A stretch of 64,000 nt of DNA from an uncultured Pseudomonadota bacterium (GTDB lineage Bacteria; Pseudomonadota; Alphaproteobacteria; RF32; CAG-239). Under the pieces are notes generated by a model that saw only the letters and a program-made list of their open reading frames with translations, had not been told where the DNA came from and made no database searches. A program made the position numbers and the translations under genes. The stretch covers positions 16,922-80,921 of the forward strand of contig CASEYY010000016.1 in the NCBI GenBank assembly GCA_949292335.1, read 5' to 3'. Positions 18,583-20,258 of the stretch are shown piece after piece. Position 1 is the stretch's first letter. Each line of letters begins with the position of its first letter.

Positions 18583-18658
18583 GGGTGCGTAGCTCAGTTG
18601 GTAGAGCAACTGACTCTTAATCAGTGGGTCTGGGGTTCGAACCCCCACGCGCCTACCA
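18583..18658 (+). tRNA. tRNA-Lys(CUU), CCA encoded
   Basis: 76-nt cloverleaf folded by hand: GGGTGCG acceptor, GCTC/GAGC D-stem, ACTGA-ctCTTaa-TCAGT anticodon arm, TGGGG-ttcgaac-CCCCA T-arm. Confidence 0.9.
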
Positions 18659-18733
18659 ATAAAAAAGGTCTCTTTAGGAGACCTTTTTTTATTGGGTAGG
18701 TAATGTTGGGTTTGAACCACAGACACTGGGGTT
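18641..18733 (+). repeat. Direct repeat copy 1 (tRNA-Lys T-loop/acceptor 3' end + terminator + ~45-nt tail)
   Basis: acccccacgcgcctaccaataaaaaaggtctctttaggagacc...ggtaggtaatgttgggtttgaaccacagacactggggtt recurs at 18827-18917 with a few substitutions and a 1-nt indel. Confidence 0.9.
18661..18690 (+). terminator. Rho-independent terminator after tRNA-Lys
   Basis: aaaaaaggtctc-tttag-gagaccttttttt. Confidence 0.8.
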
Positions 18734-18826
18734 CGACTACCAGCGAAAGCGATACGGGGGTATCGCGGTGAGCGTAAGCGAATGAGTGCCAGTGCAACTC
18801 GAGCCTTTGATAGAAGGCGAAGAGTA
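18734..18826 (+). other. Unassigned GC-rich 93-nt segment with three predicted hairpins, sitting inside the T-loop of the duplicated tRNA-Lys 3' fragment
   Basis: gcgatac-gggg-gtatcgc, gagtgc-cagt-gcaactc and gcctt-tgatag-aaggc stems. It is visibly more GC-rich than its surroundings and is flanked by ctggggttcga on the left and acccccacgcgcctacca on the right. Confidence 0.3.
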
Positions 18827-18917
18827 ACCCCCACGCGCCTACCAATAAAAAAGGTCTCTTTAGGAGACCTTTTTTATTGGTAGGTAATGTCGGGTTTGAA
18901 CCCCAGAGACTGGGGTT
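18827..18917 (+). repeat. Direct repeat copy 2 (pseudo tRNA-Lys 3' end + terminator copy + tail)
   Basis: See copy 1. It includes a second CCA-ending acceptor strand and a second terminator hairpin (18847-18875). Confidence 0.9.
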
Positions 18918-19042
18918 ACCTGTATTGCAAGGTTCAAAAATTTTTTATGATTATTTTGTTTCATATTCAATAAATGCTTGCTTTCATATCTTTTTTATCT
19001 ATAAAATAAATGCGAAAGTTTTTTAACAAGGAGATATTATCA

Positions 19043-19831
19043 ATGAAATTTGTCAAATATACTTTGCTCTCATTACTGGCAGTTATCGTAATCGCTATTA
19101 TTGCCGCTTGGGTCTATTTAGAGCCTTTGGTTAAAGGTGTCGTTCATAAATTCGGTACTCAAGTTGTTGGCACCGAAGTTACTTTGGATGGTTTCAAATT
19201 GCATCCTATTGACGGCGAATTGGAAATTACCGGTCTTAAGGTTGCCAATCCGCAAGGTTATAAAGAACCCAATTTGCTGAGCTTGGGTAGAGTTTTTGTA
19301 AAAGTAGATGTTAAGAGCTTATATTCTGATACCATAGTCGTCGAAAATATCAGAGTTACAGCTCCGGAAATTACCTATGAAATGCCGAATTTTACGACCA
19401 GCAATATTCAGCAAATTCAAGAAAATGTTTCTAAAAATACCGCTTCAACCAAAAACAAACAGCCGGTTAAGGAAGAAAAAACCGAGGCTAAATCAGAGCC
19501 GGCCAAGAGTGTGGTTATTCGCAATGTCTTGGTTGAAGATGGTAAACTTTCTGCCTTGACTCCGTTGCAGAAAAATGGAGAAGCTTTAGTTCTGGATTTG
19601 CCGGCTGTCGAAATTACGGGTATCGGGGATGGTCGCAAAAATATGACTATCGACGAATCCTTAACAGTGGTCTTCAACAGAATTCTCTTTAATGCTACTT
19701 CCGTTGCCACCAAAGCTTTGGGTAATGTTTCCGAAGCAGCTCAGAAAATTGCTAATCAGGCTGCAGAGCAAGCCAAAGGAAAAGTTAAAGAAGAAGCCGA
19801 AGGTTTGTTGGATAAAGTTAAATTCTGGTAG
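19043..19831 (+). CDS. Hypothetical membrane-anchored protein
   Basis: N-terminal TM (LLSLLAVIVIAIIAAWVYL), a beta-rich middle region, a K/E-rich linker and an amphipathic C-terminus. Start at the ATG at 19043, which has an aaggag RBS. No family recognised with confidence. Confidence 0.6.
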   Translation: MKFVKYTLLSLLAVIVIAIIAAWVYLEPLVKGVVHKFGTQVVGTEVTLDGFKLHPIDGELEITGLKVANPQGYKEPNLLSLGRVFVKVDVKSLYSDTIVVENIRVTAPEITYEMPNFTTSNIQQIQENVSKNTASTKNKQPVKEEKTEAKSEPAKSVVIRNVLVEDGKLSALTPLQKNGEALVLDLPAVEITGIGDGRKNMTIDESLTVVFNRILFNATSVATKALGNVSEAAQKIANQAAEQAKGKVKEEAEGLLDKVKFW

Positions 19832-19850
19832 TATTTATTTTCAGGCCACA

Positions 19851-19880
19851 AAAAAGCATCCGATTTCGGATGCTTTCTTT
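19851..19880. terminator. Hairpin terminator (bidirectional position)
   Basis: aaaaagcatccg-attt-cggatgctttcttt. A near-copy lies at 20003-20035 with the loop reverse-complemented (aaat). Confidence 0.7.
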
Positions 19881-19882
19881 GT

Positions 19883-19972
19883 TGGCGGAGAGGCAGAGAT
19901 TCGAACTCTGGGTGGGCTCGCGCCCACGACGGTTTGGGCCTTTGGCCATCTGCGATTCCAAGACCGCTGCAT
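19883..19972 (-). pseudogene. tRNA-Ser 3' fragment (acceptor 3' strand+CCA, T-arm, variable arm, anticodon arm with ~22-nt insertion, end of D-arm)
   Basis: Identical to the intact tRNA-Ser(UGA) at 20038-20127 over the 3' half apart from one variable-loop substitution. It carries the extra gaatcgcagatggccaaaggccc in the anticodon loop, and homology stops inside the D-arm. Confidence 0.8.
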
Positions 19973-20002
19973 CAAGTAGCTTGTAATGTAATATTTAAGC
20001 AC

Positions 20003-20035
20003 AAAAAAAGCATCCGAAATCGGATGCTTTTTTTT
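20003..20035 (-). terminator. Rho-independent terminator after tRNA-Ser(UGA)
   Basis: gcatccg-aaat-cggatgc stem flanked by an A-run and a T-run, immediately 3' of the tRNA on the minus strand. Confidence 0.75.
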
Positions 20036-20037
20036 AT

Positions 20038-20127
20038 TGGCGGAGAGGCAGAGATTCGAACTCTGGGTGGGCTCGCACCCACGACGGTTTTCAAGACCGC
20101 TGCATTAAACCACTCTGCCACCTCTCC
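20038..20127 (-). tRNA. tRNA-Ser(UGA), CCA encoded
   Basis: The reverse complement folds as GGAGAGG acceptor, GCA/TGC D-stem, GCGGT-ctTGAaa-ACCGT anticodon arm, GTGGG..CCCAC variable arm, CAGAG-ttcgaat-CTCTG T-arm, then G-CCA. Confidence 0.9.
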
Positions 20128-20190
20128 ATTAGGTGTCAAATAAAAATAATATCCTTTTGTGAAAACCGTCAAGAAACTTCGTTTCTTATC

Positions 20191-20258
20191 CGACGGTTTG
20201 GGCCTTCGGCCATCTGCGATTCCAAGACCGCTGCATTAAACCACTCTGCCACCTCTCC
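20191..20258 (-). pseudogene. tRNA-Ser 5' fragment (acceptor 5' strand, D-arm, anticodon arm with the same ~22-nt insertion)
   Basis: Matches the 5' half of the intact gene, carries gaatcgcagatggccgaaggccc in the anticodon loop, and ends after ccgtcg. It shares a 46-nt direct repeat (1 mismatch) with 19927-19972. Confidence 0.8.

Follow-up and report, generated by a model that had tools for sequence, protein, structure and literature searches.

We describe a candidate new family of structured leader RNA, derived from a transfer RNA (tRNA) gene, at the tRNA-Ser(UGA) locus of an uncultured alphaproteobacterium. The locus lies in a stretch of 64,000 nucleotides (nt) of contig CASEYY010000016.1 (GenBank assembly GCA_949292335.1), which we refer to in its full length as the window, and its features were read on the minus strand between positions 19700 and 20450. 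The element in question, A, covers about 100 nt (20159-20258) upstream of the intact tRNA-Ser(UGA) gene, B, and a chimeric partial copy, C, follows further downstream. Comparison with related genomes shows that A goes back to a tandem copy of the tRNA-Ser gene and about 20 nt of its leader, remodelled into an RNA of roughly 100 nt with three helices, and that together with tRNA-Ser(UGA) it forms an old, vertically inherited unit in a clade of uncultured Alphaproteobacteria from gut and rumen. It is very probable that A is a structured RNA under selection, and we consider the identity of A as a leader element and of C as a by-product, taken together, to be reasonably likely.

A tRNA-derived RNA conserved upstream of tRNA-Ser(UGA)

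The minus strand carries, in order, a promoter-like block, A, a 31-nt spacer, B, the terminator T1, a short tail (tail1), C and a second terminator, T2. Only B (20038-20127) passes as a canonical tRNA, being called by ARAGORN and reaching 58.8 bits with the Rfam tRNA model RF00005; A scores 14.3 bits with that model, for which the family threshold is 29 bits, and C is not reported. Element A begins with positions 1-36 of tRNA-Ser(UGA) (20223-20258; the acceptor 5' strand, the D arm, the 5' strand of the anticodon stem and CTTG), identical to B at 36/36 positions. There follow a 23-nt insert, GAATCGCAGATGGCCGAAGGCCC, recognised by comparison with the tRNA (20200-20222) and composed of GAATCGCAGAT, a GGCC-GAA-GGCC hairpin and a C, then the segment AAACCGTCG (20199-20191), a second hairpin and GACGGTTTTC; beyond the apical part of that hairpin (AAGAAAC-GAA-GTTTCTT), A runs into GACGGTTTTCAC. 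The original prediction, made from the letters of this DNA alone, had described the 5' part of A down to 20191, the intact gene, and a 3' part with CCA (19972-19883) followed by a second copy of the terminator. These described sequence features are confirmed, and the interpretation placed on them, taken up below, is partly supported.

Relatives of the locus were gathered in two ways. Loci from a genome collection were recovered through synteny with mltB and are not selected for A, and metagenome loci were found with a DNA pattern that fixes 25 bases of A. A promoter, A with the same insert, 26-38 nt and an intact tRNA-Ser(UGA) follow one another in seven of the former (L002, L003, L005, L006, L009, L019 and L021, the last cut by a contig end), and A-B recurs in six of the latter (L055 and L057-L061); a seventh metagenome match was rejected as a chance match in GC-rich coding DNA. 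Besides the window there are thus 13 A-B loci, all from related uncultured gut or rumen Alphaproteobacteria, with MltB proteins 61-85% identical where measured. The closest mltB relatives are all metagenome-assembled genomes (MAGs) of uncultured Alphaproteobacteria from human, ruminant and rabbit guts and are at most 87% identical, so the species of the window is not in the genome collection.

A covariance model built from 14 copies of A, R1, scores the 15 A elements at 78-111 bits (105.6 bits for that of the window) and intact tRNA-Ser genes at no more than 43 bits, a separation that makes A a discrete class. The 14 copies other than the window's comprise 13 complete ones and the contig-truncated copy of L021 (77.9 bits), and all 15 stand directly upstream of tRNA-Ser(UGA). 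Every complete copy (14/14) ends in hairpin 2 and UUUU, with no T arm after it. Apart from the sub-threshold tRNA match, no Rfam family was found for A or C at the gathering threshold or at E <= 10.

Three helices are recognised in A. Stem a (20216-20231), from the RNAalifold consensus, pairs GCGGU, formerly the 5' strand of the anticodon stem, with AUCGC from the beginning of the insert around the 6-nt loop CUUGGA; hairpin 1 (20201-20211) is the GGCC-GAA-GGCC stem-loop of the insert; and hairpin 2 (20163-20199), drawn from folds and covariation, has a basal helix of AAACCGUCG and UGACGGUUU around an apical AAGAAAC-GAA-GUUUCUU and is followed by U-rich sequence. All four pairs of hairpin 1 vary on both sides in a compensatory manner (GGCC/GGCC, GGCU/AGCC, GAGC/GCUC, CGGC/GCCG, UGGC/GCCA), with 100% of alignment cells paired. 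The apical stem of hairpin 2 also varies in sequence and keeps its pairing in every copy (AAAC/GUUU, UGAC/GUCA, GCAAC/GUUGC). Over the whole structure seven pairs have changes on both sides, and 94.5% of cells are paired as against 29-43% when the partners are slid; none of 500 shuffles reaches the observed covariation score, on an alignment that was fitted to the model and favours the structure. On the tRNA-sense strand G-U pairs are frequent and C-A mismatches number just two, which points to an RNA read in the sense direction rather than to a site in double-stranded DNA. Four of the five pairs of stem a are invariant and one goes from GC to GU in three sequences, a variation that is compatible with pairing without amounting to compensatory proof. 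The basal helix of hairpin 2 shows no variation at all, GGAATCG.AGA of the insert is invariant in 14 copies, and hairpin 2 appears in the minimum-free-energy fold of 10 of 14 copies. Mean pairwise identity is 0.81 in the A-specific segment, compared with 0.52 in the 30-nt leader before A, 0.65 in the spacer and 0.90 in the tRNA, so that A combines compensatory changes with conservation above that of the neighbouring non-coding DNA.

Origin of element A and of the downstream copy C

A and B have in common the 5' part of the tRNA and several bases of 5' leader; in L002 they share most of a TTATTTTG..CCTAAT leader, and the first four or five bases of the variable arm (GAGGG) are retained in the A of many species. 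From these shared parts it follows that A originated as a tandem duplicate of the tRNA gene. Eight of the 14 copies in relatives have TT(T/A)GAG-type sequence in place of the 3' strand of the D stem; this strand equals that of B in the window and in L002, L005, L009, L019 and the second L057 copy. Given the eight replaced copies, the perfect identity of the 5' part in the window reflects homogenisation by B. The 3' strand of hairpin 2, GACGGUUUUCA (20160-20170, inverted repeat I7), is complementary at 11/11 positions to 20083-20093, the anticodon loop and 3' stem of B, and this complementarity follows automatically because A contains a copy of that arm. The inverted anticodon-arm copy of the original prediction, GACGGTTTTCA, is indeed present, with its coordinates shifted by one base to 20170-20160.

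In two relatives the gain and loss of copies is directly visible. L057 (9126-9358, minus strand) has the arrangement A-A-B, its second A carrying the D arm of the intact tRNA, and is the product expected of unequal crossover between 5' parts; in L001 an A-type leader is fused directly to the tRNA, the reciprocal loss of A. Unequal crossover accounts for the patchy distribution of A without mobility.

The repeats of the locus had been taken for an att-like duplication. A and C would then be scars of site-specific integration in the anticodon loop of tRNA-Ser, left by an island that was almost wholly deleted: the repeats would be att sites, the hairpins leftover recombinase or arm sites without present function, and the attP on the mobile element would contain GAATCGCAGAT..hairpin..CAAACCGTCG. 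In support of this, A is patchy among relatives, A and C have a 46-nt direct repeat in common, and the break with the tRNA falls in the anticodon loop, which Williams reportedly described in 2002 as a target of integrases. Islands are also described as interrupting tRNA genes, which are then restored with a displaced fragment left behind (PMC4383910). However, no integrase, transposase or other mobile gene was found in the roughly 7 kb upstream and 5 kb downstream, which agrees with what was originally noted: a Pfam search of 10 neighbouring proteins (spanning 13.0-25.5 kb) returned housekeeping families only, and the flanking genes are chromosomal housekeeping genes (pgi, mutL, ZIP, TerC, AsmA-like, mltB, rlpA, dacA, tmk and holB). 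Base composition is even across the locus, without a compositional anomaly. The direct repeats (36-39 nt between A and B, 46 nt between A and C) would bound an island of only 95 nt or 218 nt, neither with an open reading frame (ORF), and the displaced piece is the 5' part, which is atypical. A-specific conservation above that of the spacer, together with compensatory changes in the hairpins, is unlike a neutral scar, and the free variation of the stem sequences speaks against sequence-specific protein sites. The insert had 0 matches in viral contigs in a pattern scan, and BLAST searches of phages and plasmids matched tRNA-Ser genes and not the insert. An integration scar is therefore very improbable.

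C (19883-19972) joins 46 nt from the middle of A (19972-19927) to the tRNA-Ser sequence from the variable arm to CCA (19926-19883). Its repeat with A (20191-20236 and 19927-19972) has, as described in the original prediction, a single mismatch in the hairpin loop, and the repeat search extends it to 49 nt at 96%; BLAST E-values of the locus repeats run from 1e-15 to 1e-23. Two occurrences of the insert-bearing 39-mer were counted in the window, with 0 expected from shuffles, and no further copy of the insert was found within the 64 kb, so that it does not behave as a dispersed mini-element; no second copy of A's tail or of tail1 was found there either. R1 matches C at model positions 29-59 only. 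The A copy in C begins at position 23 of the tRNA-like part and ends exactly at AAACCGTCG, the only segment 3' of the insert that A and B have in common.

The 3' part of B with T1 and a 15-nt tail is homologous to the 3' part of C with T2 and its tail. T1 (20003-20034; inverted repeat I3, 15-nt arms 100% complementary, -17.6 kcal/mol) and T2 (19850-19879; inverted repeat I4, beside the AsmA-like gene) have the loops AUUU and AAAU, which agree with those first reported. These loops are mutually reverse-complementary, a pattern that would be expected from a template switch within the hairpin; the corresponding loop of L001 is GUUU. Homology between the B side and the C side stops at ..TAAATAYTAC. 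Tail1 (19973-20002) was identified by alignment with tail2 and L001 as a diverged copy of the downstream flank of the ancestral locus, GTGCTTAAATATTAC, to which a 15-nt filler, ATTACAAGCTACTTG, is joined; its 30-mer occurs once in the window. C and T2 hold the ancestral position, because the flank of C is collinear with L001. The two terminator-and-tail regions differ at about 10 positions in about 110 nt (~9%), including two indels and the inverted loop, so that these are separate copies of some age; the 46-nt repeat has 1/46 differences and the tRNA-like parts of C two in 90 nt, a low divergence that suggests gene conversion.

C could have arisen by duplication of 264 bp with an illegitimate junction at the filler, followed by a 131-bp deletion between AAACCGTCG copies at microhomology, or by a single replication event with two template switches. 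We think it probable that C is a lineage-specific by-product of this repeat-rich locus, formed by one of these routes, duplication with deletion or template switching. A copy of type C was found in none of the 13 other A-B loci, and the closest relative, L001, has a promoter, leader and tRNA only. The template switch originally proposed is thus plausible for C, given the filler and the end of the repeat at AAACCGTCG, and not for an insertion into an interrupted gene. The proposed insertion of a 264-bp unit into an interrupted tRNA-Ser gene is not supported by the other loci, where A-B carries the same insert and no insert-bearing 3' half is found; A is accordingly a conserved element that stands by itself and not half of a gene.

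Could C be an artefact of metagenome assembly, produced from repeats or strain mixtures at a locus that in reality contains A-B only? The host is known from MAGs only, other contigs with the same flanking proteins break inside repeats or at neighbouring tRNAs, and C is unique among the loci examined. Yet C with T2 differs from B with T1 at about 10 positions, indels and loop among them; the flank of C is collinear with L001, and that of B, tail1, is a diverged copy with a unique filler. The junction of tail1 with ATGCAG, the loop polymorphism and the junction GTCG|TGGG all lie within 20-30 nt of unique bases, and ordinary k-mers would presumably not create such junctions by repeat collapse. 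We therefore consider an artefact improbable.

On paper, A and C can also be joined. In that case they would form a second tRNA gene with a serine-type body and an intervening sequence of 22-23 nt in the anticodon loop, functional either after recombination between the 46-nt repeats, with deletion of B, or through joining or splicing of RNA, and a mature RNA of about 90 nt would join GGUCUUGGA to AACCGUCGUGGGCG. The complete gene envisaged by the original prediction is borne out to the extent that, with introns allowed, ARAGORN folds the in-silico join into a cloverleaf of 90 nt and places a 22-nt intervening sequence at 38/39; the anticodon is read as UGG. The tRNA-like parts of C are also better conserved (2/90 nt) than its terminator and tail (~10/110 nt). 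However, the 3' partner is present in 0/13 other loci, where A closes with a hairpin and U-tract of its own; the repeat is direct and not complementary, so that the pieces cannot anneal like the halves of a split tRNA; and no other tRNA-Ser(UGA) gene was seen in the window that would be left after deletion of B. A strong terminator precedes C, for which the promoter scan found no promoter-like site. A group I intron was rejected, the insert having 23 nt as against about 200 nt or more, with no Intron_gpI match at E <= 10. So was an archaeal-type intron or split tRNA, since the constrained folds contain no bulge-helix-bulge (they give 5 bp, a 1-nt bulge, 4 bp and an 11-nt asymmetric loop), the A/C repeat is direct and the 3' half occurs in no relative. 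Nothing suggests that a joined A+C molecule is made, and a split or interrupted gene is extremely unlikely.

Possible roles of element A

If A is a leader, it would be transcribed from the putative promoter P1 (20289-20317; TTGACC, a 15-17 nt spacer and TATAAA or TAAAAA). A block of this type, CTTGAC(C/G)..TATAAA, precedes A in 12 of 14 copies, the exceptions being L055 and the second L057 copy, and stands directly before the tRNA in L001, which is without A. We propose that A, as a leader that includes a terminator, influences the tRNA gene downstream in cis. Its strand CAAACCGU would pair upstream with GCGGUCUUG, the old anticodon stem, to form an antiterminator, or downstream with GACGGUUU to form a terminator, and stem a would sequester GCGGU and so serve as an anti-antiterminator. 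In this way A might govern the share of P1 transcription that continues into the tRNA, or else keep the tRNA from misfolding with the duplicated 5' strand. We put forward this attenuator or insulator mechanism tentatively, as possible rather than probable.

Several features fit such a role. The stem of hairpin 2 (-5 to -14 kcal/mol) with its UUUU looks like a moderate terminator, weaker than T1 and T2 (~-17 kcal/mol), and a terminator-like hairpin with a U-tract between a promoter and a gene is, as a sequence feature, what an attenuator would have. GCGGUCUUG and CAAACCGU are complementary in all copies, every position involved being invariant. Constrained folds place the two states 1-9 kcal/mol apart, with the terminator state favoured in most copies and the alternative, non-terminator state in L055 and L060. 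Natural partial variants exist: L016 and L018 have lost the 5' half of A, with the AAACCGUCG strand destroyed, and L025 has lost GACGGUUUU, which L016 retains along with 12 of 14 copies, the remaining two copies each having a single mismatch. The three variants would fit an intolerance of an unopposed terminator. Seen on their own, the leaders of L016 (1700-1810) and L018 (1665-1785) are reduced to an apical C-GAA-G hairpin, GACGG(U/C)UUUC and the ATTATT motif, and L025 (1019-1166) has a divergent tRNA-like 5' part and an insert of about 55 nt.

As the main alternative, A could be a stand-alone small RNA (sRNA) that is transcribed from P1, ended by hairpin 2 and active in trans, the tRNA having its own promoter in the spacer; it might be a decoy mimicking part of tRNA-Ser or a sponge like the Escherichia coli 3' external transcribed spacer (3'ETS) of leuZ. 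The unit has the make-up of an sRNA gene (promoter, about 100 nt, hairpin, UUUU), and its single-stranded GGAAUCG.AGAU is invariant. Its 5' end can pair with the U-rich tail, as GGAGAGG/UUUCUCC in L005 and L009 (-9 kcal/mol) and as GGAAAG/UUUUCC in 4 of 5 copies of L055, L057, L059 and L061 (about -5.5 to -6 kcal/mol), a pairing that would close a cloverleaf-like molecule. The promoter scan places a promoter-like site over the end of A, TTGACG-18-TATTTT or, as originally noted and likewise present, TTGACG-15-TATTAT. The A-B spacer (20128-20158) also contains a conserved (A)ATTATT(T/G)T motif 11-22 nt before the tRNA, found by motif comparison upstream of B in 14/14 copies and in the A-less L001, L016, L018 and L028; in L001 it lies within the transcribed leader. 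This motif could serve as the -10 of a second promoter or as a processing site, an assignment made uncertain by the distance from GACGG to ATTATT, which varies between 11 and 19 nt among copies; a fixed second promoter with TGACGG as its -35 is doubtful for the same variation. The lack of a conserved -35 to -10 geometry counts against an independent sRNA, as does the constant position of A just upstream of tRNA-Ser(UGA) (15/15), which suggests a relationship in cis. We regard a role in trans as rather unlikely.

A further reading of the leader is that the tRNA gene controls itself through a leader made from its own remodelled duplicate, which would be an undescribed class of cis-regulatory RNA. 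The copied anticodon-arm strand, with its inverted copy, would switch between antiterminator and terminator, and the input would be a factor that recognises the anticodon arm of tRNA-Ser, or the tRNA pool. Such self-control is unlikely.

Two further ideas about A were considered and set aside. A T-box-like leader (a UCG codon with UGGC) was rejected because UGGC is not conserved in L003 and L019. A leader peptide was rejected because the frame stops after nine codons in L057, and L005 and L019 lack its start codon; no conserved leader ORF was found in the aligned copies of A. The frame itself comes from the AT before the 5' G of the tRNA, which makes an ATG (window 20258-20186 and 20130-20090, minus strand); it ends at the anticodon TGA in B, and in A an extra G (TGG) extends it to 24 codons. 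This frame is probably meaningless.

A number of observations weigh against the identification of A as a leader and of C as a by-product. C is known from a single assembly. A is absent in many relatives (L001, L008, L020, L022, L024, L017 and L052), and the metagenome A-B loci came from a search pattern that itself fixes bases of A. Neither strand of stem a, of the antiterminator or of the basal terminator helix varies, so that covariation cannot discriminate between the alternative pairings, and gene conversion by the tRNA gene may account for part of this constancy. The fold energy of the whole element is not unusual when compared with shuffles (z = -0.89). Hairpin 2 is weaker than T1 and T2, has a bulge of 4-6 nt and only four U, and was not listed by a simple terminator scan. 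Promoter, terminator and switching are all things that we infer from sequence, and the reason to attenuate an essential tRNA is not obvious.

Neighbouring elements and comparison with known systems

Further elements lie next to tRNA genes in these genomes. In the window, 18583-18925 (plus strand) holds tRNA-Lys(CUU), its terminator and an inverted, degenerate copy of the tRNA 3' end, followed by CTGGGGTTCGA, an 88-nt structured insert (CTACCAGCGAAAG, a hairpin, CGGT, a hairpin, ..AUGAG.. and GGCGAAGAGTA) and finally ACCCCCACGCGCCTACCA with a second terminator copy; a direct repeat of about 95 nt flanks the insert, which is placed in the T loop. The same insert family, with a T stem matching tRNA-Ser, follows tRNA-Ser(UGA) in L059 (1209-1900), where it forms three tandem 177-nt units, and in L060 and L061; it is inverted in L055 (12380-12473) and conserved after tRNA-Lys in L001 (1471-1760). 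This element has no Rfam family and no viral match, and it recalls the 178-bp repeats after E. coli tyrT. A hammerhead reading was rejected, since the CUGAUGA..GAAAC-like strings lack the required stems and no Rfam ribozyme was matched. Hairpins with a GAA loop closed by C-G (GGCGAAGCC, GACGAAGUC, AACGAAGUU, AGCGAAGCU) recur in A and in the post-tRNA-Lys and post-tRNA-Ser element (window 20201-20211, 20173-20189 and 18750-18830; L057-L061). In DNA, GCGAAGC is an unusually stable mini-hairpin.

L003 (2135-2330) and L006 (850-1045) have another conserved element of about 190 nt (GGCGGACGGCTCAAACGGCGC...ACACACCAGAGCAGTGGTGTGTTTT) after tRNA-Ser(UGA), with a terminator at its end and no Rfam match. 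In L055 (11990-12052), upstream of A and just after a tRNA-Thr, a second ..CAGTCGGTTTTCCAG..TTATTATT stretch resembles the tail and motif of a degenerate A.

If A is functional, it represents a new non-coding RNA family in uncultured gut bacteria and a clear case of a duplicated tRNA gene turned into the structured leader of its sister copy. To our knowledge, dedicated leader structures that regulate individual tRNA genes are barely documented in bacteria, and a tRNA-derived attenuator would be a useful test case for tRNA-gene regulation. More generally, partial tRNA copies beside tRNA genes are not automatically att scars or pseudogenes; unequal crossover and template switching readily reshape such loci, and this also interrupts short-read assemblies there.

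No described equivalent of A was found in literature searches, and we therefore compared it with systems that share some of its features. Like the archaeal split and intron-containing tRNAs (Nanoarchaeum; bulge-helix-bulge), A and C can on paper be combined into a cloverleaf whose anticodon loop holds additional sequence, but the host is bacterial, the repeat is direct, there is no bulge-helix-bulge and the 3' piece is missing in relatives. The displaced tRNA fragments of Islander-type integration (PMC4383910) likewise involve partial tRNA copies by an intact gene, direct repeats of tRNA sequence and a break in the anticodon loop. Our locus differs in having no integrase, cargo or attP-bearing element, in displacing the 5' part, and in a non-tRNA part of A that is conserved across species with compensatory changes.

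The 3'ETS of leuZ in E. coli is a functional RNA from the external transcribed spacer of a tRNA transcript. A is similarly a non-tRNA RNA from a tRNA transcription unit and may have its own function; in contrast, it lies on the 5' side and derives from the tRNA sequence itself. At E. coli tyrT-tyrV, tandem tRNA duplicates recombine unequally, and each 178-bp repeat that follows tyrT contains the final 19 nt of the tRNA. The present loci resemble this in the gain and loss of copies by unequal crossover (A-A-B in L057, loss of A in L001, C here), and in the window a repeat of about 183 nt includes a copy of 19 nt from the 3' end of the neighbouring tRNA-Lys. They differ in that the upstream copy A does not amount to another functional tRNA; it has been remodelled, with new hairpins and a terminator-like end, and is conserved over large evolutionary distances.

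Attenuator leaders (T-box, PyrR-type and trp-type) share with A a position between promoter and gene, a hairpin followed by U's, a strand, CAAACCGU, with two exclusive partners, and a stem (stem a) that can lock the upstream partner. Unlike them, A precedes a tRNA and not an mRNA and is derived from that very tRNA; UGGN is absent in L003 and L019, there is no specifier loop and no conserved leader peptide, and A matches no Rfam leader family. Judged by sequence features, A appears most like a terminator-containing leader, and the locus around it most like unequally recombining tandem tRNA duplicates.

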